Source: Patescibacteria group bacterium (GTDB lineage Bacteria > Patescibacteriota > Patescibacteriia > Patescibacteriales > GWC2-42-12). Taken from it: DNA of 64,000 nt. Made by a program: the position numbers and the translations under genes. Positions 2,341 to 32,522 of the stretch are shown piece after piece. Position 1 is the stretch's first letter; every line of letters starts with the position of its first letter. The stretch lies in NCBI GenBank assembly GCA_041662965.1, contig JBAZRI010000003.1, positions 1,331 through 65,330 on the forward strand, read 5' to 3'. The notes beneath the pieces were generated by a model, which was given only the letters and a program-made list of their open reading frames with translations, made no database searches and was not told where the DNA came from.

Positions 2341-2482
2341 TTGGGTGAAATTTATAAAATTTTCGTGCTCGCCCCGTTAAATAGGCTTCGCCTCCCGCAG
2401 GGATTTAACGGGGCGAGGACTGTTTGAGCTCGAGTAATCTCGAGCGAGTTCCGCAGTAGAAAATTTTATGAATTTAACCCAA
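2341..2482. repeat. nested palindromic repeat, copy A (ftsA-ftsZ spacer), carrying an inner CCCCGTTAAAT hairpin at 2370-2415
   Basis: Outer arms are ttgggtgaaatttataaaattttc / gaaaattttatgaatttaacccaa. The conserved core is GAGGACTGTTTGAG-[stem-loop]-CGAGTTCCGCAGTAG, shared with the copies at 33372, 52011, 56448 and 63919. Confidence 0.8.
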
Positions 2483-2497
2483 CCGCCAGCTAAAAAT

Positions 2498-3763
2498 TTA
2501 CGGTATCAGCGACTTAAACCATTCTTTAACTTGCTCCAGCCCTTTACCGGCCGCGCCGCCGGTCGGCCAGCTTATTCTTGAAGTCTTTTTGCGCTTGGTT
2601 AACTGGTTGCCCCAGGCGACGAGTCCTAAGGCGGTCAGATAATTAACATCATTAACTTTATCAATGGCTAAAGAAATATTTTGGTTAGAGCCTAAGCAGG
2701 CGGGCAAACGCAATTTATTTTTCGCCACCTCCACCAAATCATTTAATTTAGCGCCGCCGCCAATTAAGAAAACTCCGGCCGGCAACATCCCGCTACGGTC
2801 TATCTTTTTTAATTCATTGTCAATTTTTTCAAAAATTTCTTCAACCCGGGCTTCAATGATTTCCGCCACGTATTTTTTAGAAATCACCATGCTGTCTTCG
2901 GAAATATTTTCTTCTTTAGCTAGGTCGCTCGCGTCCACTTCGTCTTTTTTCGTAAATTTATCGCTCTTAGCCGAGCCGTATTCAAGCTTAATTCTTTCGG
3001 CTAAATTAATCGGGCACCTTAAGCCGATAGCCACGTCGGCGGTTATATGCTCGGAGCCGATGGGAATAACCGCGGCGTGGAGCAGTTCGCCTTCTTCAAA
3101 AACCGCTAAACTCGTGGTAGACGAGCCGATATTGATTAAAGCCGCGCCCAGCTCTTTTTGCTTGGCGCCGATAACGACTTCGGCCGCGGCCAAAGGCGAT
3201 AAAACCAGATCTTCAATTTCTAAACTGGTGCGGTAAATCGCTTTGGTTAAATTTTTTATCTGGCTGCTTAGCCCCTGAATAATTAAAGTTTCAACTTCCA
3301 GCCTGACGCCGGTCATGCCGATCGGATCTTTTATGTCTGCCTGGTTATCCACGGAAAATTTAACCGGTATGACATGAAGGATTTCATAATTCGGCGGCAC
3401 GGATAAAGCCTGGGCGGCTTCCACCGCCCGGTTAACGTCATCCTCGGTTATTTCATTATCGCTCCGGCCGACCGCGACCACGCCCTGGCTTTTTTCGCAT
3501 TTTAAATTCGGGCCGTTTATGCCTACCCAGACATTGGTAACCGGCACGCCGATTAATCTTTCGGCTTTTTCCAGGCAGGACGAAATCGCCGAAGTCGCGT
3601 CTTCAATGCTGTTAACCGCGCCCCGGTTTATGCCTTGGGCCGACACGGTAACCGCGCCTAAAATTTGCAATTGTTCGCCTGACTCATTGGCCTTTCTTTG
3701 GCCGACTACCAGCCTGACTGACGTTGAGCCGATATCCAAGCCGGCAATAATATTTTCTTTCAT
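2498..3763 (-). CDS. ftsA: cell division protein FtsA
   Basis: 421 aa actin-fold ATPase with motifs DIGSTSVRLVVG, INIGSSTTSLAVF and LIGGGAKL. It is upstream of ftsZ. Confidence 0.93.
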   Translation of the reverse strand: MKENIIAGLDIGSTSVRLVVGQRKANESGEQLQILGAVTVSAQGINRGAVNSIEDATSAISSCLEKAERLIGVPVTNVWVGINGPNLKCEKSQGVVAVGRSDNEITEDDVNRAVEAAQALSVPPNYEILHVIPVKFSVDNQADIKDPIGMTGVRLEVETLIIQGLSSQIKNLTKAIYRTSLEIEDLVLSPLAAAEVVIGAKQKELGAALINIGSSTTSLAVFEEGELLHAAVIPIGSEHITADVAIGLRCPINLAERIKLEYGSAKSDKFTKKDEVDASDLAKEENISEDSMVISKKYVAEIIEARVEEIFEKIDNELKKIDRSGMLPAGVFLIGGGAKLNDLVEVAKNKLRLPACLGSNQNISLAIDKVNDVNYLTALGLVAWGNQLTKRKKTSRISWPTGGAAGKGLEQVKEWFKSLIP

Positions 3764-15752: not shown

Positions 15753-15753
15753 T

Positions 15754-16234
15754 GTCATTGCGAGCGCCATTTTTGTCATTCCCGAAGCCGCAGGCTGTCG
15801 GGAATCCAGGGGTTAAACGCATAATTAATATTTATAGCATATCAAGAAATAAATCGTACCAGGTTGGGTTGTCTTTTTCTATTAAATTTATTTTCCATTG
15901 CCGATTCCATTTTTTCAATTGTTTTTCTCTTAATATAGCGTCTTGAATATATTGATATTCTTCAAAATATATTAATTTATCAATTTTATCCCCCTCCGGG
16001 GATAAATATTTAGCCGTGAAACTTTGAGGATTTTGTTTTAATTTATGTTGAAAACTTCTATTGAATAAATCTTTGGTTACTCCGATATATAATGTGCCGT
16101 TTCTTTTGCTCGCCAGTATATAAACATAATAAATATGGGCTTTCTTAGTTGTATTATACATAGCATTCATTTCATTCGCGCCTGGATTCCCGCCTGCGCG
16201 GGAATGACAAAGAAATTGGCTTTCTCGCAATGAC
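15754..16234 (-). mobile_element. GIY-YIG ORF flanked by roughly 55 bp terminal inverted repeats
   Basis: The left end GTCATTGCGAG...GTCATTCCCG..GGGAATCCAGG (15754-15810) is the reverse complement of the right end CCTGGATTCCCGCCTGCGCGGGAATGAC...CTCGCAATGAC (16181-16234). The element fills the spacer between two surface-protein genes. Confidence 0.65.
15832..16170 (-). CDS. GIY-YIG nuclease family protein (UPF0213-like)
   Basis: YYVYILASKRNGTLYIGVT...R...H, then EKQLKKWNR. I trimmed the start to ATG 16170 because the ORF-track N-terminus translates the inverted repeat. Confidence 0.8.
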   Translation of the reverse strand: MNAMYNTTKKAHIYYVYILASKRNGTLYIGVTKDLFNRSFQHKLKQNPQSFTAKYLSPEGDKIDKLIYFEEYQYIQDAILREKQLKKWNRQWKINLIEKDNPTWYDLFLDML

Positions 16235-16243
16235 AGCTAATCC

Positions 16244-17974
16244 TTACTGGCAGCTGCTATTACTGCTCGCCGCGCCGTCGCAACAAGACGGATTGCCGTT
16301 TACCCCTAGTCCGGAACAGGGCGTATAGCAATTCTGGTAAATATCCTTAACGCCGGAATTCAACTCTACCGAATAATCAGTATTTTCATTAAACTGATCA
16401 TGATTAACTTTAGCGGTAGTTTTATTGTCGGCAAAATTATCGCTTTTGGTTATCCAATAGTTATAGCCAGCGCCCGCGCTTCTTAAATTTATGCTTGAAC
16501 TGTTTAAGGACGAGCTCATCAGCAATTTACTAAAAGTAGCTTCCGGCACGGCGGATAAATCCACTCCGCTGCCGCCGACCGGCGGGCTGATATGATCTAT
16601 TTTTGGCGGTATGATATCAATCGTATTATTAGTATTAAACAGCCAATAGTAATCATCGCCTTGGCCGTCATGGGTTTGGCTATTGGCGTTATAAGGCGGT
16701 AAAGCACTTTGCGACTCTGGCCCAACCGCCGTGCCGTCGCCATTGCCGTCAAACGAATTATCCGCCATATCAACTACGCCGTTATAGGGGAAAATGGCCG
16801 AAGCGATATCAGGGTCAAAAGCCGCGGCATTGATAAAGGCCTTAATTTGCTTATCGCCGGGCAGGCAATAAATCGTCTGGCCGCAGGAATTAACGCCGCA
16901 AGCGTCAAAAGTCAAATATTCCACGGTTTCATACTGGTTGGAAATGTAAAAAATGCCTTCAATTATAACATTGTCCGTGTTATTAAAAATCTTAATATTT
17001 TCAAAACCGCTGCCGTCTCTAAAAGCTCCGCTGGCCGAAATCGGATCAACCGCTTCGGAAAAATTTATCTGCACGACCACGTTTCTCGGCTCGGTAGCGC
17101 TGGGCTGGGGAATAATGCTCTCAACTTTCGGCGGCGTGATATCAATAAACGTGCCGACTTCAAACATCCAGTCATAAGCAATATCGCCGATGACGGAGCC
17201 AAAAGCCGGATCGCCGTTGACCTTTTTTATGTTTTTACCTAAGCCGACCGAGTACCAAATCTTTTCCGTGGGCGAACCTAAATATTGCGATGGCTTAAAA
17301 ACAAAAGTTTTATTGTCATCGGTTTTTACCGCGCTAACGTCAAAAGTAACCGCGCCGGCCACGCCGTCCACGGTTTTATAAATTTTAATATTTTGCTGAT
17401 TGATTTTATTGTCAACTATAATCGTCGCCGGATCAATCGCCTCTTTAAAAGTAACCGCGATTTTTGTGTTCCTGGGAATATCTTTTTGGTTGCGCCCGGG
17501 ATAATGGGAATTGATTATGCCTGAACCCAAAGCCGAAATTCCGCCGCCTCCGCCTCCGCCCGGAGGCACGGGAACATTGCCGCCGGCCGCGCCCGTCAGC
17601 CTATTTAAAATAAAACTTACAATGGCGAAAGCCGACAAAATAATTATTAAGCCGATAACCGCGTTTTGCAATATTTTTTTCGCTTGCGTTATTTTTTCTT
17701 CATTGCCTTCAGAAGTCATCCAAATCCAGCCGGCATACATTATTAAGCTAACGGCGATAATGCCTAAAAAGCCGATAAAAATCCTGATAATTCTGGCGAT
17801 AATTACTCTAATATCCTGGGAGTTGCTTAAGCCCGTGCCTTCGGCATAGTTTAAGCCGACTTCAGGCCCGGCCGCGGCCAAGGCGAAATTCGCCAATAAA
17901 AAAATAGCCAAGAGCATAAATAAACATATGCCGGCTATTTTATAAAGCCTATTAATTTTTTTGGTTTTTAGCAT
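16244..17974 (-). CDS. surface protein with an N-terminal T4SS-pilin-like domain, Ig-like (SbsA-type) domains and a Cys-rich C-terminus
   Basis: The N-terminus is a paralog of the giant protein (AAGPEVGLNYAEGTGLS...MYAGWIWMTSEGNEEKITQAKKIL). It has a poly-Gly/Pro linker, ITPPKVESIIP...INFSEAVDP, and ends CCDGAASSNSSCQ. Start trimmed to ATG 17974. Confidence 0.75.
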   Translation of the reverse strand: MLKTKKINRLYKIAGICLFMLLAIFLLANFALAAAGPEVGLNYAEGTGLSNSQDIRVIIARIIRIFIGFLGIIAVSLIMYAGWIWMTSEGNEEKITQAKKILQNAVIGLIIILSAFAIVSFILNRLTGAAGGNVPVPPGGGGGGGISALGSGIINSHYPGRNQKDIPRNTKIAVTFKEAIDPATIIVDNKINQQNIKIYKTVDGVAGAVTFDVSAVKTDDNKTFVFKPSQYLGSPTEKIWYSVGLGKNIKKVNGDPAFGSVIGDIAYDWMFEVGTFIDITPPKVESIIPQPSATEPRNVVVQINFSEAVDPISASGAFRDGSGFENIKIFNNTDNVIIEGIFYISNQYETVEYLTFDACGVNSCGQTIYCLPGDKQIKAFINAAAFDPDIASAIFPYNGVVDMADNSFDGNGDGTAVGPESQSALPPYNANSQTHDGQGDDYYWLFNTNNTIDIIPPKIDHISPPVGGSGVDLSAVPEATFSKLLMSSSLNSSSINLRSAGAGYNYWITKSDNFADNKTTAKVNHDQFNENTDYSVELNSGVKDIYQNCYTPCSGLGVNGNPSCCDGAASSNSSCQ

Positions 17975-18059
17975 GGAAAAAATGAATTTAAAAACTTTGA
18001 CTTTTGCACAGTCTTGTAATAATATTATAACATAAACAAAATAGCAAAAGCAAACAATC

Positions 18060-19529
18060 ATGACCATAAATCAAATCATCAACAACTTTAAGGAGAATAA
18101 CCCCAAGGCTGACCCCACTATGATCCAGCTGGCTTATGAATTCGCCGTTAAAGCCCATTCCGGGCAAAAAAGAAAAAGCGGCGAACCCTATATTCAGCAC
18201 TCTTTGCATACGGCTTTCGTTTTAGTGCAGATTAAAGCCGATATGGAAACCATAATCGCCGGCCTGCTCCATGATATTCCCGAAGATACCGAATTTACGC
18301 TGGCCGATATTGAAAAAAACTTCGGCAAAGAGATCGCTGATCTGGTGGAAGGCATAACTAAATTAAGCAAGATAAAATACCGCGGCATTGAACGCTACCG
18401 CGAAAGCTTGCGCAAAATGTTTTTAGCCATGGCGCAAGACCTAAGGGTTATTTTAATAAAATTCGCCGACCGCCTGCATAACCTAAGGACATTGGAATCT
18501 CTGCCTTTGGAAAAACGCCAGCGCATCGCCCGCGAGACTTTGGAAATTTACGCTCCAATCGCCGGACTTTTAGGCATCTGGCGGTTAAAATGGCAGATGG
18601 AAGATATCTGCTTTAAGCACCTAAACCCGGAAGAGTATAAAAAACTGGCTTATAAATTTGAGGTAGAAAAAAGGCTTGAGCATAACCAATATATTCAAAG
18701 AGTAAAAAATATGCTGGGCGCGAAACTTAAAGAAGCAAAAATTCCTTTCCATATTATCAGCCGTTTTAAGCACCTTTACAGCATTTATCTTAAACTGCAG
18801 AAAAAAGACCGGAAATTTGACGAAATTTACGATGTTTTCGCTTTGCGCGTTATCGTGCCTGACGTTGCTAATTGCTATAAAACTTTAGGCATAATTCATT
18901 CTTTGTGGCGGCCTAACCCCGGCCGGTTTAAAGATTATATCGCCGTGCCAAAGCCTAACGGCTATCGGGCTCTGCATACCACTGTCTACGGCCCGGAAGG
19001 CAAATCAACGGAATTTCAAATCAGAACCGAAGAAATGGATGACGTGGCCAAATACGGCATCGCCGCCCATTGGTCTTATAAAATGGACGGCGGCCATAAA
19101 AACGATTCAAAAAAACAGCCGGACTGGGTAAAGGAAGTTTTGCATATCCAAAAAGAAACCGCGGACACGGCTGATTTTATCAAGCAGATAAAATTTGATG
19201 TTTTCCGCGACCGGATTTTTATTTTTACGCCTAAAGGCGATGTTTTTGACTTGCCGGAAGGAGCCACGCCGATTGATTTCGCTTATTACGTCCATTCGGA
19301 TATCGGCAACCAGGCGGTCGGCGCCAGGGTCAACGATAGAATCGCCACCTTAGACCAGGAATTAAAAAATGGCGACTTGGTGGAAATAACCACGGAGAAA
19401 AAACGCCAAGGCCCGAGCCGCGACTGGCTTAAATTCGTTAAAACCGCCACGGCCAGAAATAAAATCAAGCAAAATTTAAAATCCACCATGATGGATAATA
19501 TTAAAAAATTCATACCGAAGATAAAATAG
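18060..19529 (+). CDS. rel: RelA/SpoT homolog, (p)ppGpp hydrolase + synthetase + TGS domains
   Basis: HD motif LLHDIPEDT, synthetase motifs RFKHLYSIYLKL and YRALHTTV, and TGS motif IFIFTPKGDVFDLPEGATPIDFAY. At 489 aa it has no ACT-type C-terminus. Confidence 0.92.
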   Translation: MTINQIINNFKENNPKADPTMIQLAYEFAVKAHSGQKRKSGEPYIQHSLHTAFVLVQIKADMETIIAGLLHDIPEDTEFTLADIEKNFGKEIADLVEGITKLSKIKYRGIERYRESLRKMFLAMAQDLRVILIKFADRLHNLRTLESLPLEKRQRIARETLEIYAPIAGLLGIWRLKWQMEDICFKHLNPEEYKKLAYKFEVEKRLEHNQYIQRVKNMLGAKLKEAKIPFHIISRFKHLYSIYLKLQKKDRKFDEIYDVFALRVIVPDVANCYKTLGIIHSLWRPNPGRFKDYIAVPKPNGYRALHTTVYGPEGKSTEFQIRTEEMDDVAKYGIAAHWSYKMDGGHKNDSKKQPDWVKEVLHIQKETADTADFIKQIKFDVFRDRIFIFTPKGDVFDLPEGATPIDFAYYVHSDIGNQAVGARVNDRIATLDQELKNGDLVEITTEKKRQGPSRDWLKFVKTATARNKIKQNLKSTMMDNIKKFIPKIK

Positions 19530-19575: not shown

Positions 19576-19654
19576 AAATTAAAAAGCACTTAATAAAAAA
19601 TTAGAAATGGGCGCGGGAGGCTTTATACGGCCTCCCGCGAAAGAATGAACAGGA

Positions 19655-19831
19655 CTAGTAAACTAAATCCAAACTGAATAAATAATTACTGGGCATGCCT
19701 CCTCTTTGGATAAATTGCCCCCTTGTTATGCCCTTTTTTAAAACTTCGCAAATTTCTGCCGCATTTTCGTCATCTGCAGTTATTAACGTTTTTCCCTTTT
19801 CCGAAAAAAAACGTTCTTCTAAATCTCCCAT
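19655..19831 (-). CDS. small hypothetical protein (58 aa)
   Basis: ATG 19831 is preceded by AGGAGGAGG, a strong SD. An upstream TTGACA-17-TATTGT lies at about 19947-19919. A hairpin at 19611-19638 lies downstream. I recognised no motif. Confidence 0.4.
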   Translation of the reverse strand: MGDLEERFFSEKGKTLITADDENAAEICEVLKKGITRGQFIQRGGMPSNYLFSLDLVY

Positions 19832-20181
19832 AAGCACCTCCTCCTAAAGATTATTTTATTAGCCCAATTCTAATTTTTTATTATAAATTTTAAAGGACAA
19901 AATCCATAAATTAATAACTAAACAATAGTCTAAATTTTGCTGTTTGTCAATTATAATCCGGCCTAATTTTAGAGATAAATTTCAAACAAAACCGGAGATG
20001 CCTATCGCGTAATCTGCGCTGCGCCCGGAGACAGAACTGCGGCTAAAACAGCCGGCTCTTATGGCTCATGCCTACTCGCCCATTGGCTCATTTCCACCAT
20101 TTGAGCCATTAGCTTAAAACGATGGAGTTTTATTGGCATCCTTAATAAATTATTTCCTAGCGCCGGAATATAGGCGCATAT

Positions 20182-20529
20182 CTATAACTTATTATGCTTG
20201 GTATGTTTTCCTTTGGCTTTTTCAATCGGATATCTCCTGGCTGTTTCAATAAGTTTTTTTGGCAAAGCCAAGCTAATATTAATATTTAAATCATGCGACA
20301 TTAGTAAAACCCAATACAAAACATCTGCCAATTCGTCGGCTATTTCATTTTTATTTGTTTTTACATACTTTTCCATTTCTTGCTTATTTTTCCATTGAAA
20401 ATGCTCTAAAACCTCCGCCGCTTCCAACGCTAAAGATATAGCCATGTCTTTTGGATTGTGAAACTGTTTCCAGTCTCTTTCATCGCGAAATTTTATAACC
20501 TTTTTTGTTAACTCATTGATATCAGACAT
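20182..20529 (-). CDS. MazG-like all-alpha NTP pyrophosphohydrolase (DCTPP1/YpjD-like)
   Basis: FRDERDWKQFHNPKDMAISLALEAAEVLEHFQW and ADELADVLYWVLLMSHDLNI fit the MazG-type EExxE/D four-helix pattern. Confidence 0.8.
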   Translation of the reverse strand: MSDINELTKKVIKFRDERDWKQFHNPKDMAISLALEAAEVLEHFQWKNKQEMEKYVKTNKNEIADELADVLYWVLLMSHDLNINISLALPKKLIETARRYPIEKAKGKHTKHNKL

Positions 20530-20636
20530 ATTTTATAACTTATTTAAATTATATCTTATTTATCTTAGATTAAACCAAAATGCTTTTTTATATAATTTTC
20601 AACTTCTTTAATAATTTTTATATTATCAATTATCTA

Positions 20637-21251
20637 TTATCTGTTTAAATCTAGCAAAGCTATTTCAACCGGCGCGGAGCTAACGCCAAAATATTTTGCT
20701 ATCGGTCTGGCTAAATATTGATTAAGAATTTTTGGGTCTATTTCAGTTATTTTAATTTGATCTTCAGAAATAAATTGATTAATCACTTTTTTTCTAATTT
20801 CATATAATTGACCCCGAGGAATTAATAAAAAATTGGCAAAAATATGCGCTTGTGTTTCCATAAAATGGTATTGATCTCCCGGTATTTCATCATAAAACCT
20901 GTTAAAATCATCGGCATCGCTAATTCCAAATTGTTCATATAAATTTTTATGCAACGCCAAATGGCCGATTTCATGGGCATATGAAAATCTTAATCTATTA
21001 TTATTTTTATCTGCTTCAAATAAATCATAATCTACGCAAATCTGTTGCCAAGACGAAGTTATATAAGCATCAATATTAAACAATTTAAATAGGCCTGGCT
21101 TGAATATAATATCCATCCTTAAATTAACACTGATTATTTTTTCTATATCCACCGGAATTATGTCGTTCCAATATTTTTTTCTAAATAGCTCGGCGGCATC
21201 GGAAATTTCTCCCTTGGTTAGAAAGGGCACTTTAACGCTCTGAAAATTCAT
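20637..21251 (-). CDS. ImmA/IrrE-family zinc metallopeptidase
   Basis: HEXXH motif within YAHEIGHLALH. It lies 4 nt downstream of an XRE HTH gene, which is the canonical pairing. Confidence 0.8.
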   Translation of the reverse strand: MNFQSVKVPFLTKGEISDAAELFRKKYWNDIIPVDIEKIISVNLRMDIIFKPGLFKLFNIDAYITSSWQQICVDYDLFEADKNNNRLRFSYAHEIGHLALHKNLYEQFGISDADDFNRFYDEIPGDQYHFMETQAHIFANFLLIPRGQLYEIRKKVINQFISEDQIKITEIDPKILNQYLARPIAKYFGVSSAPVEIALLDLNR

Positions 21252-21255
21252 TTTT

Positions 21256-21636
21256 TTATTTATTATTTTTTATTAGCTTAAATAACGCCTCTATTTCTCG
21301 CTTGGTCGGCTTCTCGTCTCTCATAGTCCGAAAAAACGCCGGCAGAAGTTTAACTGTATCTGCGTCGGAAAGTATATCTTCCGGTATGATGCCTTGAGCG
21401 ATCGCAGCGCAGTCAATAAAATCATTCAGTTCTTTTTTATTTGGTAATAATCCAAATATTTTAGTCCACTTTATGAGAGTATTTTTATCCGAAGGCGGAG
21501 CCATTTTTCCTCTTTCAATTTTACTCCAATTACTAGGATCATAATCGGCTAATTTACATATTTCCCTTAGGCTAAGGTTTTTTTCAATTCTTAAATTTTT
21601 TAACAATTCGCCGAATTTTTGTAGATTTTTTTTCAT
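21256..21636 (-). CDS. XRE-family helix-turn-helix regulator
   Basis: LKNLRIEKNLSLREICKLADYDPSNWSKIERGK, an HTH_3-like motif. Confidence 0.75.
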   Translation of the reverse strand: MKKNLQKFGELLKNLRIEKNLSLREICKLADYDPSNWSKIERGKMAPPSDKNTLIKWTKIFGLLPNKKELNDFIDCAAIAQGIIPEDILSDADTVKLLPAFFRTMRDEKPTKREIEALFKLIKNNK

Positions 21637-21676
21637 TGATTCACCACCTCTCTAGTTTTTTAATTAATATTAAATA

Positions 21677-21715
21677 AGTGTGGTATTATTTTACCACACT
21701 TAAAAATATTGTCAA
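21677..21715 (-). promoter_or_regulatory. promoter plus palindromic operator of the XRE/ImmA pair
   Basis: On the minus strand, TTGACA (21715-21710), a 16 nt spacer, then TAAAAT (21693-21688). A 10 bp inverted repeat AAGTGTGGTA / TACCACACTT (21677-21701) spans the -10 box. GAGAGGTGGTGA precedes the ATG. Confidence 0.55.
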
Positions 21716-21725
21716 ATTGTTTTAC

Positions 21726-22538
21726 TTATTTACCACTTTTAATTTTTCTTACTTTTTCAGCCTTCTTTACCCTGGTATGCGCTTTGCCGATGCCGTCCGG
21801 CGTAGGTAAATTCTCCGGCATAGTGCCGCCCAAACCCTGAATGGTGTTTCTGACTTTTTGGCCGACTTCATAATGGGCCAGATTAGCGCTTGTCTCTCCT
21901 TTAATATTTTCTCGCCTGATTTTAGCGTCGGCCTGCGTGGCGCGAAACAGATTGGCCGCCAACTCTTCACTGCCCATATGGTCAAGAATATGCTGTGTCT
22001 TTTTAAGATTCTTGCGATTATGGATGTCTTGCATGGTAAGGCCGCCGTAAAGCCCTCTGTAGCCGTAATTTTGAAAAATCGCGTAATTTTCTACACCGGC
22101 GATTGAGGCCGCCTGGGTTAAGCTTACATTGTGTTTTTTCATCTGCTCTCGCAAAAATACGCGCTTATTATCCTCAATTAAATTATCCGTCTTTTCCTGC
22201 CGGCGGGTTTGGATGGCAAAATAGGTCTGCCCTTTGGCGACTACGACTTTTGTCGGATCTGAATTTTGCATGACAAGATAACAAGCGTAACGGGAAAGAT
22301 ATATGATTTCCACGGGTTTTTCCGCTCCTGACCCAATCTTAACCATTTCGTTAGCTTCAACGAAATGGTTGTGGATAACCTCACCGCTATTCCCGCAGGC
22401 AATTTTCGCCCTTTCTATAACTCCGAGAAAATTGCGATAATCCGTGTATTCCAGAACTTTAGCTAAGTCGCGCGACGACCAATATCCCTTGCCATTATTA
22501 TCAAGCCGTTTAATATCTTCAAATTGATTTTTACTCAT
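21726..22538 (-). CDS. dinD: DNA-damage-inducible protein D-like (Bro-N type N-terminal domain)
   Basis: 270 aa. I recall close similarity to E. coli DinD over FEDIKR...WSSRDLAKVLEY..YRNF..VIERAK.AC.NSG....HF.E...MVKIGSGA...SRYACYLV.QN.DP.K...A.GQTYFAIQTRRQE. Confidence 0.8.
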   Translation of the reverse strand: MSKNQFEDIKRLDNNGKGYWSSRDLAKVLEYTDYRNFLGVIERAKIACGNSGEVIHNHFVEANEMVKIGSGAEKPVEIIYLSRYACYLVMQNSDPTKVVVAKGQTYFAIQTRRQEKTDNLIEDNKRVFLREQMKKHNVSLTQAASIAGVENYAIFQNYGYRGLYGGLTMQDIHNRKNLKKTQHILDHMGSEELAANLFRATQADAKIRRENIKGETSANLAHYEVGQKVRNTIQGLGGTMPENLPTPDGIGKAHTRVKKAEKVRKIKSGK

Positions 22539-22569
22539 ATTATTAGTATTTCATTAAAATCTATTTATA

Positions 22570-22598
22570 ATTATATACGAACAAAATACGAAATTCAA
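22570..22598 (-). promoter_or_regulatory. candidate promoter of dinD with direct repeats
   Basis: On the minus strand, TTGAAT (22598-22593), 17 nt, then TATAAT (22575-22570). The spacer holds two TTCGTAT direct repeats (22592-22586 and 22581-22575). Confidence 0.45.
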
Positions 22599-22602
22599 TA
22601 AT

Positions 22603-24096
22603 TTAAATATTATTCTTAACCAAAAAATCTTTTAAAACCATAGTGGCCTTGCAATCATCTTCATTATATTCCAAAATTCTTTTTAATATTTTTTCATCTT
22701 TGGTTTTTAAATATTCATTATACCATTGTATTGATAAAGCGCCGGAGGGCGTTTCGTCCCGCCATTTGAATCCCAGATAGACGGCAATCTCTTTTATAGA
22801 ATAACTCCCTAGTGGCCAATCGGTGTGCTTATAAATTATATCCATATATAAATCAATAGTCTTCTCCCGCGCGAAAAAGTCTTCCAGCTCGTCTTCGCTC
22901 ACGACTTCTGGGTATGTCTGGCGCATTTTTTTATAAACCGTCTTTTCATAAGGCGAATAATAATAAACCGCGAAGTCATCTTTCGGTAAAGTTCTGATGT
23001 AATCCCAAAATTTTTGCCAGGCAATTTTTTCACCTTCTGCCGTATTGCTTTCGGCTACGAAGCTTAAAAACCTTTCTTTACCGTTTTTTCTTTCATACAC
23101 GCCGTGAAGATAGACTAAATTTTGCGTCGGGTCGGCTTCAATATCAAAAAATAATTCCGTGGAAACTTCGGGCAAATTAAGATGCTCATAAATAACCGGT
23201 TTTTTAGTATTGGCAACGATATTGGCTCGAATAATTATTTTTTCAATTGTTTTCTCGCCCACGCCCGGTAAAAACTTTTTATTAGCCTTTTTCCGCGCCG
23301 CGATAACCGCGATATCTAATTGTGCGATATCTTTTACGCTATTAACCCCTAGCTGTTCAACAATAACATCTCGCTTGCTTCGTCCCAAATAAAATATATT
23401 GGTTAAGTCGTCACTTTCCTTACACCACTTTTTACAGCTTAAATACCAAGGGCACAATTTGCAAATAGCCGAACTGGCCGGTAAATTCTGCTTTTTATTC
23501 TTTATTAGCGCATCCGCCTCTTCTTTTATTTCTTCATACGCTTCCCACCAAGTCTCGGGACTGCGAACACCCATCTTATCATCTAATTTATATTCCGCTT
23601 CTTTTTCGTTTATATCAATAATCAAACCTATATTGTTTTTGGCAAATCCTTTTTCTTTTAATAATCCAGCGTAAACGCATAATTGCACGGCGTAATGCTT
23701 TTTTAGCCTGCCTTCGCCATCTTCGCTCTCCCCCTCATAGCCCAATCCAGCCTTAATATCAATTGGCAAATAATTACCATCGGATTGTTTTCTTAATAAG
23801 TCTGGTATGCCCATTAAATTCTCGCCTTTTAAAACTCCCTGATATATTAATTCATCACCGCGCTTCATAGCTTCCATAGCTAAATCAGCGGCCCGATCAA
23901 ATCCAATTTTACTTAAATCCGTAAACCCACCCAGCTTGCTGACCACTTTCTTTTCATGCTGGACGCCCCGATCCCAAAGCAATTGAACGAACGGATTAGT
24001 TTCTTTAATTTTCTCCTCTTGCGGACCCCAAACATCCCGCCACACCCGATGTGGACATTGGAGATAATTATATAGCTTTGAAGCGGTTATGGACAT
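22603..24096 (-). CDS. Cas4/RecB-like PD-(D/E)xK nuclease with a C-terminal RNase H-like domain (TM0106-type)
   Basis: N-terminal Cys (YLQCPHR), PIDIKAG (D-x-K), QLCVY (QxxxY), and a CKLCPWYLSC Cys cluster typical of Cas4-type Fe-S nucleases. The C-terminus has FFDIEADP...YLHGV...YNEDDC, an RNase H-like exonuclease fold. Confidence 0.8.
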   Translation of the reverse strand: MSITASKLYNYLQCPHRVWRDVWGPQEEKIKETNPFVQLLWDRGVQHEKKVVSKLGGFTDLSKIGFDRAADLAMEAMKRGDELIYQGVLKGENLMGIPDLLRKQSDGNYLPIDIKAGLGYEGESEDGEGRLKKHYAVQLCVYAGLLKEKGFAKNNIGLIIDINEKEAEYKLDDKMGVRSPETWWEAYEEIKEEADALIKNKKQNLPASSAICKLCPWYLSCKKWCKESDDLTNIFYLGRSKRDVIVEQLGVNSVKDIAQLDIAVIAARKKANKKFLPGVGEKTIEKIIIRANIVANTKKPVIYEHLNLPEVSTELFFDIEADPTQNLVYLHGVYERKNGKERFLSFVAESNTAEGEKIAWQKFWDYIRTLPKDDFAVYYYSPYEKTVYKKMRQTYPEVVSEDELEDFFAREKTIDLYMDIIYKHTDWPLGSYSIKEIAVYLGFKWRDETPSGALSIQWYNEYLKTKDEKILKRILEYNEDDCKATMVLKDFLVKNNI

Positions 24097-24110
24097 TTAT
24101 TTTTATTTGT

Positions 24111-24452
24111 TTAGATAATTCCAAAGTGTTTCTTAAGATAACTTTCGACTTCTTTAATAATTTTTATATTTACCTCCCCTATTTTATGAATAAACCTTAA
24201 TTTATCATAGCTAATTATGTGATGTACTTTTATAATTGAATCTTCATATAATCTATTGCTAACGTCTTTTTTGATAAAAATATCATCTCTATGACGATTA
24301 CCGGAAGAAGATAACGGCATAATCGTAACTAAATTAACGGCGGTAATTAAATTATTAGCCATAATAATAAGCGCCGGACGGTCGTTATAATATTCGTGCC
24401 CAACGCTTTTTTCTTCGGCCAATTTAATCAACCAGATTTCCCCCTTTTTCAT
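24111..24452 (-). CDS. MazF/PemK-family endoribonuclease toxin
   Basis: 113 aa. KKGEIWLIKL...DRPALIIMAN...VTIMPLSS matches the PemK/MazF pattern (GdIw...RPvlVvs...vvPlTs). Confidence 0.8.
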   Translation of the reverse strand: MKKGEIWLIKLAEEKSVGHEYYNDRPALIIMANNLITAVNLVTIMPLSSSGNRHRDDIFIKKDVSNRLYEDSIIKVHHIISYDKLRFIHKIGEVNIKIIKEVESYLKKHFGII

Positions 24453-24454
24453 AT

Positions 24455-25189
24455 TTACTTAAGATTTTTATAATAATTAGCTGCCGCTTCCGAAATTGAA
24501 CCTAAAGCTTTAAGCGCGTCGCGGCCGGCGGCATCCTGCATGTCTTCAAACGAAGAAGTTTTAATTACATTTTTTATTAAACCATTAATCATATAATTAT
24601 CGTCAGCATGAATATAAATTGGTTTAAAATTTTCCGATGATTCGGAAACCAGCGCGATTTGATCCTCCCTTTTATCCCAAAAAAACTTTTTAATATTGGC
24701 ACATCCTTCAATAACCGATAGCACATAGTCGCCATTACGGGGATTTTTATTATCAGGATCAACTAAAACATAATCGCCATCTTCTATTGTCTGTACCCCA
24801 TTAACTTTGGCGCGGTTCATTGACGGCCCTTGAGCGCGTACTGCGAAAATATTTTTTACCTTGCCGATTAAGCGCCGCGATATTCTCAAATAGCCTTCTA
24901 AATTTTCCTCGGCAATAATTTTAGCTTCGCCGCAATCGGCTCCGCCGTAAATCGGCACGGCCACGATCTCGCTAACGCCCTGTTTTATTTCCGAATTAAT
25001 TAATCGCGCTTCACCGGTTTTTTTATCTATTTCAATAAATCCCTTTTTCTCTAATTGGCTTAAATGATGGCTGATTTTTTGCGGATGGCTTTCGTCAACC
25101 AATAAGCCAATATCTCTAAGGCTCATTTTTTCCATATTAATCTTAGAAACGATTTTTAATAGTTTTTCTTGTATGGGATGCAAATGCAT
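24455..25189 (-). CDS. LexA-like repressor (winged HTH + S24 peptidase) with a C-terminal extension
   Basis: N-terminus is LexA-type wHTH (MSLRDIG...ISHHLSQLEKKGFIE). S24 motifs are VPIYGGADCGE (cleavage-loop region), GPSM (Ser) and ANIKKF (Lys). About 45 aa follow the S24 fold. Confidence 0.8.
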   Translation of the reverse strand: MHLHPIQEKLLKIVSKINMEKMSLRDIGLLVDESHPQKISHHLSQLEKKGFIEIDKKTGEARLINSEIKQGVSEIVAVPIYGGADCGEAKIIAEENLEGYLRISRRLIGKVKNIFAVRAQGPSMNRAKVNGVQTIEDGDYVLVDPDNKNPRNGDYVLSVIEGCANIKKFFWDKREDQIALVSESSENFKPIYIHADDNYMINGLIKNVIKTSSFEDMQDAAGRDALKALGSISEAAANYYKNLK

Positions 25190-25219
25190 AAAATTTTATG
25201 ATTATTTATACTTATCCAC

Positions 25220-25248
25220 ATTATAGACTAAGAACAATGTTTTGTCAA
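25220..25248 (-). promoter_or_regulatory. consensus sigma70-type promoter of the lexA-like operon
   Basis: On the minus strand, TTGACA (25248-25243), 17 nt, then TATAAT (25225-25220). The spacer contains the small palindrome AACA-T-TGTT. Confidence 0.65.
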
Positions 25249-25275
25249 GTTTTTTATAATTACTCGTCAAGTCTC

Positions 25276-25304
25276 TTGACGGCTATTTCTATTTTTGCTA
25301 AAAT
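25276..25304 (+). promoter_or_regulatory. divergent promoter toward the DUF2188 gene
   Basis: TTGACG (25276-25281), 17 nt, then TAAAAT (25299-25304). The -35 box overlaps the GTCAAG-N3-CTTGAC palindrome at 25266-25280. The leader is about 140 nt and has two hairpins. Confidence 0.55.
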
Positions 25305-25453
25305 AATAAATAACCCTTAAAAATCAAAACGGGTTAGACCAATAAAGGCCTTACCCGCTTGAAAATGTGCGGCCGATTATCCGCACAAACGCTCTTAATA
25401 ATTAAAGGATAGCACATTCTCAATTTTTGGGGAATAATAATTAATTTATACTT

Positions 25454-25693
25454 ATGTTACCGAAATTTACACTTAGTCTGAATGACGAAAAAGATGTGTG
25501 GCAACTTAGAAACGATATGACAAACAGAGTTCTGAAAAACTTCGACACTAAGGGTGAAGCCTTAGAGGGTGGGGTTATGAAAGATTTGCTTGGGAACAAT
25601 GGTGGATCAGTAAAGATTCAAAAAGAAAACCACATATTCCAAGAAGAAAGGACATACCCTCGCAGCAAAGACCCTTCTGAATCCAAAGGTTAA
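25454..25693 (+). CDS. DUF2188-like small protein
   Basis: 79 aa. W.L.....R....F.TKGEAL......, then KIQKENHIFQEERTYPRSKDPSESKG, resembles the DUF2188 pattern (...I..E.tYG.DP.PpkG). Confidence 0.6.
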   Translation: MLPKFTLSLNDEKDVWQLRNDMTNRVLKNFDTKGEALEGGVMKDLLGNNGGSVKIQKENHIFQEERTYPRSKDPSESKG

Positions 25694-25705
25694 TAATCAT
25701 CAAAA

Positions 25706-25735
25706 ACAGGAAGCTCAAAGCTTCCTGTTTTTATT
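25706..25735. terminator. bidirectional terminator between the DUF2188 gene and the HEPN-like gene
   Basis: 9 bp stem ACAGGAAGC / GCTTCCTGT with a 5 nt loop, flanked by A5 upstream and T-runs downstream. Confidence 0.7.
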
Positions 25736-26477
25736 TTCCCTCTACCGCCCTTATCTCCTCCTCCCCCAGTCCATACAACTCATTAATTTCTTTTAATCGA
25801 TAAACTTCAAATCTTTTCAAATAATCTACAACCATTTTTGTTTTATCTTTAGTATCTATCTTCGCATTATCATATATTATATTAGTAGAAATTAATTTCG
25901 ATAAAAACATATCTATTATCTTTTCAATAATATTAAAAAGTTTCCTAATTTCCTCGCCGGTTATATTTATTTCATCTTTTTTTATATCATCGTGAGCGAG
26001 ATATTGATCGCGATAAGTTTTTAGTCGTTTAATAATTTCCTTATTTTTCTCAATGTCAGATTGGATTGCTAATATATCTTCATATTTTACGCCCTTATAT
26101 TCTCTAATAAGCATAGCGATAAAATTTGGATCTTGCCCTTGGCTATATTCTGCGAAGTCACTTACAGATAATTTGGCTATATTACTTTGCGTATAGTTAA
26201 TTATCTTCGTAACATGGAGTGAATTATCGGCAATATCAAAAAACTTAGCAAGCTCTAAAAAGAAATAAACACGCAGAGCTTCTTTTAAAGGGAGAAAAAA
26301 ACTACTAAAATCTTTTTCTATAATCTTCTTATTCTTTTCCAATGTGTCTTGCTCAACTGCACTGGGATCAACTAATTCAATAAGTGTTTCAAATATATGA
26401 AAAGCGGAGAGTGCCTTAAAATAACGACCCTCTATATTTTTTATATATGAAATTATCGTGTTAAATTCTTGACTCAT
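25731..26477 (-). CDS. HEPN-like protein (Rx5H motif), possibly AbiU2-like
   Basis: 248 aa, predicted all-helical by composition. Single R-DQYLA-H motif (YRDQYLAHDD). Its ATG overlaps the stop of the upstream R-M gene (TAATG). Confidence 0.5.
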   Translation of the reverse strand: MSQEFNTIISYIKNIEGRYFKALSAFHIFETLIELVDPSAVEQDTLEKNKKIIEKDFSSFFLPLKEALRVYFFLELAKFFDIADNSLHVTKIINYTQSNIAKLSVSDFAEYSQGQDPNFIAMLIREYKGVKYEDILAIQSDIEKNKEIIKRLKTYRDQYLAHDDIKKDEINITGEEIRKLFNIIEKIIDMFLSKLISTNIIYDNAKIDTKDKTKMVVDYLKRFEVYRLKEINELYGLGEEEIRAVEGK

Positions 26478-29173
26478 TATTTTTTAATAATATTAATCTC
26501 CTCTCCCGTCAACCCATACAGCTCATAAACTTTTTTATCAATTTCTTTATCCGTCTTTTCAATTTCTTCTTTTACCCCATTATATTCTTTATCGTCCATA
26601 ATCGGGTCTAATTTTTGCAGTTCTTTATTTTTTTCCAACATTTTGTCAACTAATTTCACTAATTCATCGTGTTTGGCTTTTTCATTTTTTTTCTTAAAAT
26701 CTATCTTATAAATCGGTATTTCTTTTAAATGATTTATCTTAATTTCTGCGAATAATTTTCCTTTGCGCGGTTGTATGGCTAAAAAATACCATGTACCTAA
26801 TAAAGAATTTAAAATTGCTAAAACATATTTCAAGCTAATCTGATTTTCTAAATTTTTATATAAAACGAAAAAATTATTGCTCGCATAAAAGTTTTCTTCG
26901 TCAATCGAAGCTATAATTCTATCTCCAGTTCTTCTCACTAATATTTTTTTATTAACAAAATATTCCTCTCTGCCCAAATTAGCATACTCCTTTTTATCTC
27001 TATCAATTATTTTTTTATCATATATGACATATTTACCCGCCCATTTTTTTGAATATCTATTAATTTCATTCCCTTTAAATAATAACTTCTTACAAAGTTC
27101 TGAGCTTGAAGAATCAATAAATAATTTTTTTCTTACATTACCAGAATGGATTCCTTCGTGTATCTCAAAATTTTTTCCTAAATTTGCAGAAACATCGTCT
27201 AGTTTTTGTTTTAATTTTAATATATTATCATCAAAATATAAGTTAAATTTATTATCTTTATTTTCTAAAAATATAATCTGTTTAATTTTTTTATTTTCAC
27301 TATTAACTATAACATTCATTAAATTGCTATCTCTTTTTATTTTGACTTTTTCTTTTCTTAAAATCATTACTACGGAATCTAAGTTTACCCCCGCGAAAGC
27401 CATTCCAGTATAATAAATATTGGTTATAATAAAATTATCTAAAATTATCTTTCTAATCAATGGATAATTTTTTAACAAAATAATATCAGGCAATATAAGC
27501 CCTAAAAAACCATCTTCTTTTAATAAATTAAAAGACTTCTCTATGAATAAAGCAAAGGTATCTACGATGCCACTACCTGCTATAAAATATTCTTTATAAT
27601 AATCCTTTTCTTCTTTAATAATTTCTGCACCCCATGGCGGATTACCGATTATCACGTCAAAACCTCCTTGTTTAAAAACCGGTTCAAATTTTTTCTGCCA
27701 ATTAAACGGCTTTTTTTCTTTATAATTTTCACCGAAATATTTTTTTAATTCCTCTTCTTTGCCCGAAATCAAAGAATTGCCGTTTTCTATATTATGGGCT
27801 AAATTAGGCAAAAGCTCTCTTTGCCCTAAGACTTTTAATAATAAATTCAATTGAGCGATTTCTACGGCTTCCTGATCTAAATCCACGCCATAAATATTTG
27901 AAGTTAAAATACTTACTTTTCTGGCATAATTTTTCATAATATCCGCGTCAAGCTCATTATTTTCTCTTTTAATATGGTTATCTAAAACTTCAAAGGCTTT
28001 AATTAAAAACGAGCCCGAACCGCAAGCCGGATCTAAAATTTTAATTTTCCCTGCCTCAAAACCTGACTTACCTTTTAATAATTCGCCCAAAGTATTTTTT
28101 ACGATGTAATCCACGATATATCTCGGAGTATAATAGATGCCCTGTGATTTTCTTTTGCCTGATTTTTTATCTTTTTCTTCCTGCTGAATCTGCCCTAAAT
28201 ATTGCTCATAAATACTGCCTAAAATATCGGCGTTGATAGAAGCGAAATCATAACGGATGCCTTTGGTGTTTTTATATAATTCTTTAATAATTCTTGCCAA
28301 TAGCTCATCTTCATATATAAGCGTATCGCAAATAGCCGGTAAAAATAATTTGCTGTTATAGCCGTCATTATAATCCCTAAATAATTTCTTCATTTCATCA
28401 GCCAAATTTAATTTGCCTTTGCCATCTTCCCAATTTCTAACGATTTCCCTTAACTTTTCGCCTTCAATTTTTCTGTCTTCGGTCGTCCTGATAAAAATCA
28501 GCCTGTCCAAAAGCCTTTGCACGCTCTCGGCAATTTGCTTATCGCTTAATTTTTTATCCCCGTTCCAGCCTTTTAAATCTTTAAACAGCAACGACCGCCA
28601 TTTTACCAAATCATCGGCTAATAATTTATCTACCGCTTCTTTTTTTGGTTTTTTAAAATTGGCTTCCGCGTATTTGTCTAAATCGCCTTTTAGCATTGAC
28701 TCTTTAGACAACCACCAAAGCTTTTCGTCTTTTAAATAATCTTTATAATTTATTTCAAAAATCAAGCTTCTCTCCGCGTCCGACTCGTCCCATTCGGCGT
28801 TATAAACTTTTATACCTTCAAAATCAGTTAAAATCGCCCAAGGCACGCTTTTATGCCAGGCATAAGAAATGGCTTGCTCGCCATGCTTAGCTTCCCTTAA
28901 ATCCACGCTTGGTTTTTTAGCCTCAACAAAAAATTTAATGACGTCATTAACATGAAAGGCGTAATCGGCGCGCCCGCCGGAAACCTGCGTTTCCGAAGTA
29001 ACTTCATGATTGGATATATTATTATAAACATCCCAGCCCAAAGCCTGAAATAAAGGCAAAATAAAATCCTTACAAGTCATTGACTCGTTTTTCTTCTTAA
29101 ATTCAGCCTCGGTTAAGGCGGTGAATTTATTTACCAGCCGCTCAATTTGTTTTTTAGCTTCTTGTTTATTCAT
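26477..29173 (-). CDS. Type IIG restriction-modification enzyme (fused PD-(D/E)xK nuclease and N6-adenine methyltransferase)
   Basis: N-terminus GRADYAF...FFVEAKKP (D...ExK). SAM motif I is ILDPACGSGSFL and motif IV is IIGNPPWG. A long C-terminal region is a putative target-recognition domain. Confidence 0.85.
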   Translation of the reverse strand: MNKQEAKKQIERLVNKFTALTEAEFKKKNESMTCKDFILPLFQALGWDVYNNISNHEVTSETQVSGGRADYAFHVNDVIKFFVEAKKPSVDLREAKHGEQAISYAWHKSVPWAILTDFEGIKVYNAEWDESDAERSLIFEINYKDYLKDEKLWWLSKESMLKGDLDKYAEANFKKPKKEAVDKLLADDLVKWRSLLFKDLKGWNGDKKLSDKQIAESVQRLLDRLIFIRTTEDRKIEGEKLREIVRNWEDGKGKLNLADEMKKLFRDYNDGYNSKLFLPAICDTLIYEDELLARIIKELYKNTKGIRYDFASINADILGSIYEQYLGQIQQEEKDKKSGKRKSQGIYYTPRYIVDYIVKNTLGELLKGKSGFEAGKIKILDPACGSGSFLIKAFEVLDNHIKRENNELDADIMKNYARKVSILTSNIYGVDLDQEAVEIAQLNLLLKVLGQRELLPNLAHNIENGNSLISGKEEELKKYFGENYKEKKPFNWQKKFEPVFKQGGFDVIIGNPPWGAEIIKEEKDYYKEYFIAGSGIVDTFALFIEKSFNLLKEDGFLGLILPDIILLKNYPLIRKIILDNFIITNIYYTGMAFAGVNLDSVVMILRKEKVKIKRDSNLMNVIVNSENKKIKQIIFLENKDNKFNLYFDDNILKLKQKLDDVSANLGKNFEIHEGIHSGNVRKKLFIDSSSSELCKKLLFKGNEINRYSKKWAGKYVIYDKKIIDRDKKEYANLGREEYFVNKKILVRRTGDRIIASIDEENFYASNNFFVLYKNLENQISLKYVLAILNSLLGTWYFLAIQPRKGKLFAEIKINHLKEIPIYKIDFKKKNEKAKHDELVKLVDKMLEKNKELQKLDPIMDDKEYNGVKEEIEKTDKEIDKKVYELYGLTGEEINIIKK

Positions 29174-29179
29174 GTTTTT

Positions 29180-29208
29180 ACTCTATCATTTCTCCGCTAA
29201 TATTTCAA
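29180..29208 (-). promoter_or_regulatory. promoter of the R-M gene; geometry implies a near-leaderless mRNA
   Basis: On the minus strand, TTGAAA (29208-29203), 17 nt, then TAGAGT (29185-29180). Only 6 nt separate the -10 box from the ATG at 29173. Confidence 0.55.
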
Positions 29209-29222
29209 CTTTGTTAAAATAC

Positions 29223-29251
29223 AAAAACACCGCGGCTAAAGCGGTGTTTTT
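29223..29251. terminator. bidirectional terminator downstream of 29264..29692
   Basis: Hairpin CACCGC-GGCTAAA-GCGGTG flanked by A5 and T5. Confidence 0.65.
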
Positions 29252-29263
29252 ATGCGGAATTAA

Positions 29264-32460: not shown

Positions 32461-32490
32461 AAAATAATTAATAAAAATTATTATGCTTTA

Positions 32491-32519: not shown

Positions 32520-32522
32520 CAC

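Follow-up and report, generated by a model that had tools for sequence, protein, structure and literature searches.

The 64,000-nt stretch of Patescibacterial DNA considered here (the window, in which all coordinates are given unless a comparison locus is named) carries a gene, ssn, for a 109-aa single-domain GIY-YIG protein, lying between two inverted arms that together with it fill the spacer between two surface-protein genes. We interpret this locus as an SRM–ssn–SRM module of the Ssn family in Patescibacteria, an old vertical resident of a site whose hairpin-bounded content turns over among lineages, and we assign this reading a probability of roughly 0.78. It adds a Patescibacterial case to a known system, and is neither a homing endonuclease gene nor a demonstrated active transposon.

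The Ssn family was defined by Chenal et al. (Nat Commun 2025; PMC11893778) as single-domain GIY-YIG proteins of ~94 aa (CDD cd10448). N. meningitidis SsnA (NmSsnA) binds NTS (CGTCATTCCCGCGMAVGCGGGAATCYRG), a hairpin repeat, exclusively in the form of single-stranded DNA (ssDNA); the cut falls a few nucleotides upstream of it. Cutting depends above all on the GTC that precedes the palindrome and binding on the C that directly follows it, and activity is lost once the palindrome sequence is altered. At least one SRM motif lies near the gene in 71% of homologs, and 42% have the motif on both sides. The authors liken the NTS–ssnA–NTS arrangement to an insertion sequence (IS) and to repetitive extragenic palindromes with their associated tyrosine transposases (REP/RAYT); what they demonstrated is cleavage, not mobility. 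In Neisseria, SsnA activity restricts the integration of repeat-bearing transforming ssDNA, and NTS copies cluster near surface-protein genes. The main text of the paper mentions neither Patescibacteria nor the string GTCATTGC (PMC11893778).

The features of the locus, in the order of transcription, are as follows.

16244–18067 (−): upstream surface-protein gene, 607 aa, with T4SS_pilin and Big_5 domains
16224–16235 (−): outer half-site TGTCATTGCGAG flanking ssn on its upstream side, 8–9 nt past the stop codon of the 607-aa gene
16181–16209 (−): upstream SRM/NTS hairpin TGTCATTCCCGCGCAGGCGGGAATCCAGG, forward on the ssn sense strand, with an 8-bp stem and a 4-nt loop
15832–16161 (−): ssn, predicted 109-aa GIY-YIG nuclease, best start MYNTTKK, alternative ATG at 16170
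15774–15810 (+): downstream SRM-type hairpin TGTCATTCCCG-(14-nt loop)-CGGGAATCCAGG, in the opposite orientation to the upstream hairpin, with an 8-bp stem
15753–15764 (+): outer half-site TGTCATTGCGAG on the downstream side of ssn (minus-strand reading CTCGCAATGACA, 15764–15753)
15752 (−): ATG of the giant surface-protein gene, 1787 aa, with T4SS_pilin, TIG, Big_5 and fn3 domains

The ssn product is a member of the Ssn family

A sequence-only reading of this DNA had called a GIY-YIG gene at this position, and rightly so: PF01541 matches residues 14–95 of the 112-aa version of the open reading frame (ORF; 15832–16170) with an E value of 8.7e-15. When the protein was searched by tblastn against a plasmid collection, two N. 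gonorrhoeae chromosomes filed as plasmids were recovered (E 6e-22). As the family reference we used the N. gonorrhoeae ORF at 589–870 of locus L213 (L-numbers denote comparison loci from other sequences), which has the published length of 94 aa, the residues Y6, Y17 and E64, and NTS copies on both sides. BLASTP aligns the window protein with this SsnA ortholog end to end at 48% identity over 100 columns (E 2e-32), the homology threshold set for the family being E < 1e-10 (PMC11893778). All three of these residues, the positions mutated in that study, are kept; they correspond to Y17, Y28 and E82 in the 112-aa numbering and are invariant in the homolog alignment. With 109 aa and no second domain, the protein has the single-domain build of a family whose members measure ~94–100 aa. 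By sequence, then, it belongs to the Ssn family, and its homologs number more than 7,999, with a typical length of 99 aa.

An AlphaFold2 model (mean confidence, pLDDT, 66) contains the GIY-YIG core alone, in the expected beta-beta-alpha-beta-alpha topology. Its best fold matches in the PDB are 1ZG2, a single-domain GIY-YIG protein (E 1.3e-3, 28% identity), Slx1 and I-TevI; no solved Ssn structure turned up in this search, and a profile search of PDB sequences gave no match at E 0.01 or below. The UPF0213/YhbQ-type protein 1ZG2 is similar in size and is the best structural match, but it represents another subfamily. To our knowledge, proteins of that type have no hairpin association. NCBIfam gave no family for the window protein, and a protein search seeded with a Dechloromonas homolog returned only close Rhodocyclales-type relatives and no Neisseria.

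An 18-bp perfect-stem palindrome, TATCCCCGGAGGGGGATA (15987–16004, minus strand), is inserted in frame in ssn and adds the residues LSPEGD ahead of the third strand, in a loop that the model predicts with low confidence. None of the 25 aligned homologs has the insertion, nor does the L087 ortholog, and no other copy of the palindrome occurs in the window or, the same genome aside, in the 212 loci compared.

Three side observations concern the homologs themselves. L213 (NZ_CP119142.1 1881119–1882588) comes from an N. gonorrhoeae chromosome of 2.17 Mb that PLSDB lists among plasmids. The ssnA ortholog on it lacks an in-frame ATG: its frame of 94 aa begins at ATT (589–591), and the nearby ATG at 594–596 is out of frame. 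Finally, many Ssn homologs lie on contigs of 0.4–2 kb, which fits assembly breaks at flanking repeats, though short contigs are usual in that collection.

The sequence-only reading had drawn on the role of GIY-YIG domains as homing or mobility nucleases. A free-standing homing endonuclease gene, spreading by cutting the empty double-stranded allele and being copied during repair, would be consistent with the catalytic domain, the intergenic position and the empty alleles described below. The window protein, however, consists of a catalytic core of ~100 aa with no linked DNA-binding domain, whereas I-TevI, the Seg proteins and I-BmoI, which share the catalytic fold, carry a C-terminal DNA-binding domain and cut double-stranded DNA. 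Homing endonuclease genes are also not known to carry hairpin inverted repeats, and hairpins of the kind seen here occur elsewhere with no gene at all. The characterised Ssn proteins, the closest relatives for which activity has been described, cut only ssDNA, beside a hairpin (PMC11893778). We consider a homing function very improbable and assign the protein to the Ssn family instead.

The arms of the module are composite

The sequence-only reading had described terminal inverted repeats of ~55 bp, 9 nt from the stop codon of the upstream gene (16244) and 1–2 nt from the ATG of the giant gene. Its motifs all lie where it placed them and the distances are right, the conserved terminal base 15753 directly adjoining the ATG at 15752. 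The arms are indeed inverted, but they are not continuous repeats. Each consists of an outer half-site TGTCATTGCGAG, a non-homologous spacer (14 nt on the upstream side, 9 nt on the downstream side) and a complete hairpin, GTCATTCCCG-loop-CGGGAATCCAGG, whose loop is 4 nt long upstream and 14 nt downstream. Read on the minus strand, the downstream hairpin is CCTGGATTCCCG-(14-nt loop)-CGGGAATGACA (15810–15774).

The individual motifs are well above chance. The 11-mer GTCATTGCGAG occurs exactly at 15754–15764 (+), 16224–16234 (−), 34938–34948 (+) and 35018–35028 (−); these four sites and two with one mismatch compare with 0.42 expected, and none of 100 shuffled sequences reached six. One of the mismatched sites, at 52205, lies within an ORF and looks like a chance match. 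GTCATTCCCG is found at 15775 (+) and 16199–16208 (−), and the 12-mer CGGGAATCCAGG at 15799–15810 (+) and 16181–16192 (−), with one-mismatch copies at 63749 and 39980 (four sites against 0.22 expected).

From GTCATT onward the upstream hairpin fits the NTS consensus; the preceding C is T here, a substitution permitted by the H of the SRM pattern. It is the sole match to the published SRM pattern in the 64 kb, where shuffled sequences give a mean of 0.05. The downstream hairpin is of the SRM type with a long loop. All hairpins in the window, including those of the second class described below, carry GTC on the 5′ side of the palindrome and C immediately on its 3′ side, the positions that matter most for the Neisseria enzyme. 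A hairpin identical to the upstream one stands beside ssn in L055 and at the head of the orthologous spacer in L216, and the terminus of the outer half-site also bounds an ORF-less palindrome at the orthologous site in L082. Literature searches on the literal 11-mers found unrelated primer sequences only, and searches on GIY-YIG proteins with MITEs (miniature transposable elements that have inverted repeats) or terminal inverted repeats found nothing relevant.

Inner hairpins accompany ssn genes across phyla

We surveyed 80 homolog loci in reference genomes, at 48–68% identity to the window protein, that span Patescibacteria, Flavobacteriia, Alpha-, Beta- and Gammaproteobacteria, Planctomycetota, Nitrospirota, Chloroflexota, Omnitrophota and others. 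As a hairpin we counted GTCAY leading into a stem of 6 bp or more, with the A as its first base and a C closing it, and we searched 200 nt on each side of the gene. A forward hairpin upstream and a reverse hairpin downstream are present together in 45 of 75 loci, among them Patescibacteria, Bacteroidota, Pseudomonadota, Planctomycetota and Nitrospirota; in control windows more than 1.3 kb away, 2 of 134 have a hairpin in each orientation. The median gap between hairpin and gene is ~28 nt. The sequence-only reading had staked its proposal in part on the inverted repeats being tied to GIY-YIG genes elsewhere, and for the inner hairpins this is so in many phyla.

The outer half-sites behave differently. 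A metagenome scan for the composite arm, GTCATTGCGAG-N5–30-GTCATTCC, matched at least 120 stretches, of which 80 loci were examined, and an ssn gene lies nearby in only one of them. The matches are tandem clusters of type-2 and type-1 units resembling bacterial interspersed mosaic elements (BIMEs). Because only 1 of 80 composite arms is near an ssn gene, we take the outer 11-mers of the window element as part of a hairpin cluster and reject them as the general ends of ssn elements. Mirrored tandem arrays of GTCATT/GTCATTCCCG half-sites stand outside complete hairpins on both sides of ssn in L001, L003 and L059 (~2300–3050), with a period of 22–35 nt (five 30-nt units in L003), and the outer half-sites of the window are the same kind of feature.

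These data also bear on whether the hairpins could be ordinary terminators, attenuators or REP-like mRNA stabilisers that happen to lie beside a nuclease gene. Their positions just past stop codons and their stable folds would suit such a function, and an NTS-like hairpin is part of the Rfam small RNA model FtrB. The hairpins are not followed by a U-tract, however, and no terminator is called at the arms; the GTC and AATC flanks are conserved across phyla beyond what a stem needs, and the association with ssn is strong and specific. An RNA-level side effect of the hairpins is possible, but that RNA function is their main business seems hardly credible. Two observations on FtrB (RF02748, Francisella) may be added: its consensus has the NTS-like hairpin GuCauuCcCGCGuAGGCGgGaauC, and a weak match at L216:7030–7111 (E 0.67) is owed to the NTS-like hairpin alone. 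Rfam gives no match in the window.

ORF-less doublets and a second hairpin class

Three further elements in the window have no ORF.

34937–35029 (no strand assigned): type-2 doublet of two inverted units between the lepB stop and the hisS start; predicted fold −28.4 kcal/mol, z −7.6
63731–63811 (no strand assigned): SRM-type doublet of two inverted hairpins, 23 nt past the porB stop; fold z −5.35
781–838 (−): tentatively, a degenerate single-orientation unit TGTCATTGCGGA + GTCATCGC...CAATCC downstream of ftsZ; weak fold, z −1.1

ORF-less relatives of the module had been claimed by the sequence-only reading, and they do exist in the window and in other genomes, with qualifications for each. The element at 34938–35028 is of a different hairpin class, here called type 2, in which GTCATTGCGAG is followed by a variable internal hairpin and then by CGAAGCAATC(TC) / CGAAGCAATCTC. 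This class keeps the GTC...AAT-C framing, and its doublet architecture is also found in Ignavibacteriota (L027) and Bradyrhizobiaceae (L040). What had been described as a palindrome at 63732–63810 is more exactly a doublet of two complete inverted hairpins, GTCATTCCGG...CCGGAATCCAGG and GTCATTGCGGG...CCCGCAATCCAG, separated by a 22-nt spacer. The spacer is conserved in the metagenomic contigs L116 and L183 while the stems differ, and the flanking context in L116 is different; this doublet is REPIN-like (that is, like the inverted REP doublets). The supposed half-copy at 781–838 is degenerate, as had been noted, and is better described as a unit in a single orientation.

The orthologous spacer varies in content among relatives

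We asked (i) whether the site is occupied in related lineages and (ii) for how long. For the first, we used RelA, the divergently transcribed neighbour, as an anchor and compared the same locus from 11 related lineages (L081–L084, L086–L089 and L214–L216), taking the spacer flanked by a gene of 571–904 aa and the giant gene of 1632–2124 aa. Its content is as follows.

ssn element: the window (L211 and L212 are the same genome) and L087
upstream SRM hairpin followed by a conserved non-coding module of ~165–230 nt that appears structured: L089 and L216
ORF-less type-2 palindrome bounded by TGTCATTGCGAG...CTCGCAATGACA: L082 and L083
16-nt palindrome TGTCATCACAATGACA, with CAATGACA directly followed by ATG at the junction, as in the window: L215
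AT-rich sequence only, 21–125 nt: L081, L084, L086, L088 and L214

The spacer is thus empty in five of the related lineages; the other six show four kinds of occupant, and in each of these six the left boundary lies 5–10 nt past the upstream stop codon. The downstream hairpin of L087 is identical to that of the window, loop included. In L215 (7040–7070) the spacer consists of TGTCATCACAATGACA right before the ATG, that is, of two element termini joined with 2–4 nt between them; the upstream gene has lost its stop codon there and its frame reads into the remnant, which resembles an excision or deletion footprint.

The non-coding module is ~165 nt long with 82–86% identity among its three copies (44365–44535, minus strand, in the window; L089:6875–7100; L216:6805–6985) and contains two long predicted helices. 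The L089 and L216 copies come right after the SRM hairpin, in the place that ssn takes in the window, where the copy is instead downstream of a small gene near topA. The module has no Rfam match, and no compensatory changes are seen among the three sequences; it may be a small RNA or a mobile non-coding cargo.

A second intergenic site is similarly variable. The type-2 doublet between hisS and lepB has an orthologous copy in L089, whereas the spacer is empty (14–33 nt) in L084, L086, L214 and L215 and is filled by an unrelated AT-rich palindrome of 100–154 bp, ATAACCAATAACCAAGATACAAG... and its complement, in L082 (21252–21355), L088 (13677–13830) and L216 (12628–12727).

Presence/absence polymorphism at orthologous loci, the other point on which the sequence-only reading had made its case depend, is therefore clear among the 11 relatives. 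No direct repeat that could be a target-site duplication flanks any of the four window elements or the L082 palindrome. A look-up with the window RelA and Ssn gave only the same genome, 100% identical over 13.5 kb, and no strain-level empty site.

The nuclease gene is probably an old resident and is under purifying selection

For the second question, we compared ssn of the window and L087. The gene has a synonymous divergence (dS) of 0.80 and a nonsynonymous divergence (dN) of 0.036, and its dN/dS of 0.045 indicates that it is under strong purifying selection. Because relA has a dS of 0.65 for the same pair, ssn has diverged in step with the genome. The closest relative of the window is L081 (relA dS 0.34), and its site is empty. 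A recent import by recombination from an L087-like donor was rejected, as the flanking gene segments of the window are no closer to L087 than to other relatives. Since ssn has diverged like relA under purifying selection, the polymorphism mostly reflects loss or replacement of an old resident and not recent transposition. Old occupation of the site followed by repeated loss and cargo replacement is the simplest reading; repeated site-specific insertion is a possible alternative. There is no sign of recent movement, the dS of ssn being no lower than that of relA and the window holding a single copy.

These results must be set against the proposal of the sequence-only reading that an autonomous element and MITE-like derivatives form a mobile pair. 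In its strongest form, the locus would be an active IS-like transposon with the GIY-YIG protein as transposase, and the ORF-less palindromes would be its MITE- or REPIN-like derivatives. Several observations fit: the gene is bounded by inverted repeats, as the Ssn authors remarked; orthologous sites are polymorphic, and the 16-nt TGTCATCACAATGACA of L215 shares the right junction of the window; doublet families with conserved spacers occur in differing genomic contexts; many homologs are found on very short contigs, as is usual for repeats; and homologs with more than 50% identity are distributed across phyla. Against this, ssn has co-diverged with its host genome, target-site duplications are absent (as they also are from IS200/IS605-type elements), the 64 kb contain a single copy, an ssn gene hardly ever accompanies the composite arms elsewhere, and the published work concerns cleavage alone. 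GIY-YIG enzymes are hydrolytic nucleases, and we know of no strand-transfer or rejoining activity among them, which likewise counts against a transposase. The hairpin–gene association, the ORF-less relatives and the polymorphism stand from the earlier proposal, recent movement and target-site duplication are not in evidence, and we judge an active IS-like transposon improbable.

A broader possibility is that the modules and the ORF-less doublets, including the GTCATTGCGAG...CGAAGCAATC class, form a true mobile system driven by a GIY-YIG ssDNA nuclease, with a transposition or copy mechanism unprecedented among known transposase families. We regard this as unlikely; were it true, the swapped cargo and the TGTCATCACAATGACA remnant of L215 would be traces of excision and reloading. 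Site turnover and the remnant are compatible with nuclease-driven spread and removal of repeats, and equally with deletion at long palindromes or with allele replacement by recombination.

A model for the action of the window protein

By homology with the Neisseria enzyme, the window protein would recognise the hairpin GTC-ATTCCCG...CGGGAAT-C in ssDNA only. Single strands bearing the hairpins could arise during replication, repair or DNA uptake, and the enzyme would nick them a few nucleotides 5′ of GTCATT. As the two hairpins face inward, the predicted cut sites fall just outside the gene, one per strand, in the spacers between the inner hairpins and the TGTCATTGCGAG half-sites. The ORF-less doublets are probably further substrates, in the manner of REP/REPIN sequences and RAYTs. 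The spacer is an intergenic hot spot, 5–10 nt past the stop codon of the upstream surface-protein gene, where content between hairpin termini (ssn, the non-coding module or a palindrome) is swapped or deleted by lineage. A likely role, judging from Neisseria, would be the cutting of hairpin-bearing ssDNA in transformation or recombination, which may shape exchange around surface-protein genes; spread of the repeats is a possible additional role.

Several points weigh against our interpretation of the locus as an Ssn module that acts in this way. The downstream hairpin misses the published SRM pattern, solely through its 14-nt loop, and the type-2 units are not matched by it either. Because NmSsnA is inactive on a changed palindrome sequence, one enzyme may not serve both hairpin classes. 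The 6-aa insertion is unique to the window protein. A minority of loci, including those of Neisseria and Dechloromonas, have hairpins that face outward rather than inward, so the orientation logic is not universal. Only one ssn gene and three ORF-less elements are visible in the 64 kb, and the transformation role is extrapolated from one organism.

Comparison with known systems helps to place the locus. Like the published Ssn/NTS system (PMC11893778), it combines a single-domain nuclease of ~100 aa, 48% identical to the Neisseria ortholog and with the same catalytic residues, with hairpins on both sides, one of which fits the NTS consensus; further hairpins are intergenic, and the module lies beside surface-protein genes. 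It differs in its host, in the inward orientation of the hairpins, in the 6-aa insertion and in its composite arms, whose outer half-sites belong to a second hairpin class unmatched by the published pattern.

The likeness to the REP/RAYT system (TnpA_REP, an HUH enzyme of the Y1 type) is one of organization. In both, a gene present as a single copy lies between short hairpin repeats of its own and resides vertically over the long term under purifying selection; the ORF-less inverted doublets with conserved spacers correspond to REPINs, and mixed hairpin types in tandem clusters correspond to BIMEs. RAYTs, however, are HUH tyrosine transposases that act through covalent intermediates and have an unrelated fold, whereas Ssn is a hydrolytic GIY-YIG nuclease with no known transposition activity. 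The small elements of the IS200/IS605 group ('peel and paste') likewise have subterminal hairpins recognised as ssDNA and no target-site duplication, but they use another enzyme family, while the ends in the window are symmetric inverted hairpins and its lineage gives no evidence of movement. In Neisseria, minimal mobile elements place variable cargo between conserved flanking genes, bounded by dRS3/NTS-type hairpins. The site described here similarly holds different cargo by lineage at one intergenic position; the likeness is one of site layout alone.

Expression of the giant surface-protein gene

In element-free relatives the two surface genes are 2–57 nt apart (four of the five empty lineages, and L215), L214 having a 125-nt AT-rich spacer. 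Because this leaves little room for a separate promoter, the two genes were probably co-transcribed already, and the spacing suggests that the giant gene has probably always been co-transcribed with its upstream neighbour. The sequence-only reading had observed that the giant gene has no native 5′ region left, which is correct; the same is true in L215, so this state is old. Read-through across the element into the giant gene, as also proposed there, is plausible on sequence grounds: ssn has the same orientation as both surface genes, no terminator-like site is predicted at the arms, and promoter-like matches are weak, their number (6 against 3.1 ± 1.8 expected) showing no significant enrichment.

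The arm also affects annotation. The downstream arm contains in-frame ATGs at 15756–15758, 15768–15770 and 15777–15779, and in a public gene call the giant protein (1793 aa) has its start within the arm. Start codons in a hairpin arm (ATGACA) thus mislead gene callers at the giant surface-protein gene.

Neighbouring genes

The window has a G+C content of ~41%, and the giant proteins carry a pilin domain at their head. Both features, like the organisms named for the closest RelA and Ssn homologs, suggest a Patescibacterial host close to Falkowbacteria. One neighbouring gene is of direct relevance.

40946–42037 (+): dprA, recombination mediator for incoming ssDNA; PF02481, E 5.7e-81

Its presence matters because Neisseria SsnA works on transforming ssDNA (PMC11893778). 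Between relA and hisS (~19600–33000) lies a low-GC stretch (27–39% GC), a variable island with an HTH/M78-peptidase pair, a Cas4-like/RNase H protein, an MmeI/Eco57I-type restriction-modification enzyme and a large lipase-like protein. The island is missing in L086, L088, L089 and L214–L216, where relA is followed almost at once by yqeY and hisS, and its composition differs in L082 and L084. The leucyl-tRNA synthetase (53041–55935) has a NUDIX domain (residues 399–516, E 1.8e-13) inserted past the editing domain.

Significance

Patescibacteria are very small episymbionts and are believed to depend on DNA uptake. The locus extends the Ssn family to this group, with dprA in the same window. Beyond the main text of the Ssn paper, it adds an orthologous-site series in which hairpin-bounded content is replaced or deleted and in which the nuclease gene is under purifying selection. 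The second, cross-phylum hairpin class, with its GTC...AATC framing, could serve as a guide to Ssn enzymes whose ssDNA specificity is new; these would be of biotechnological interest.

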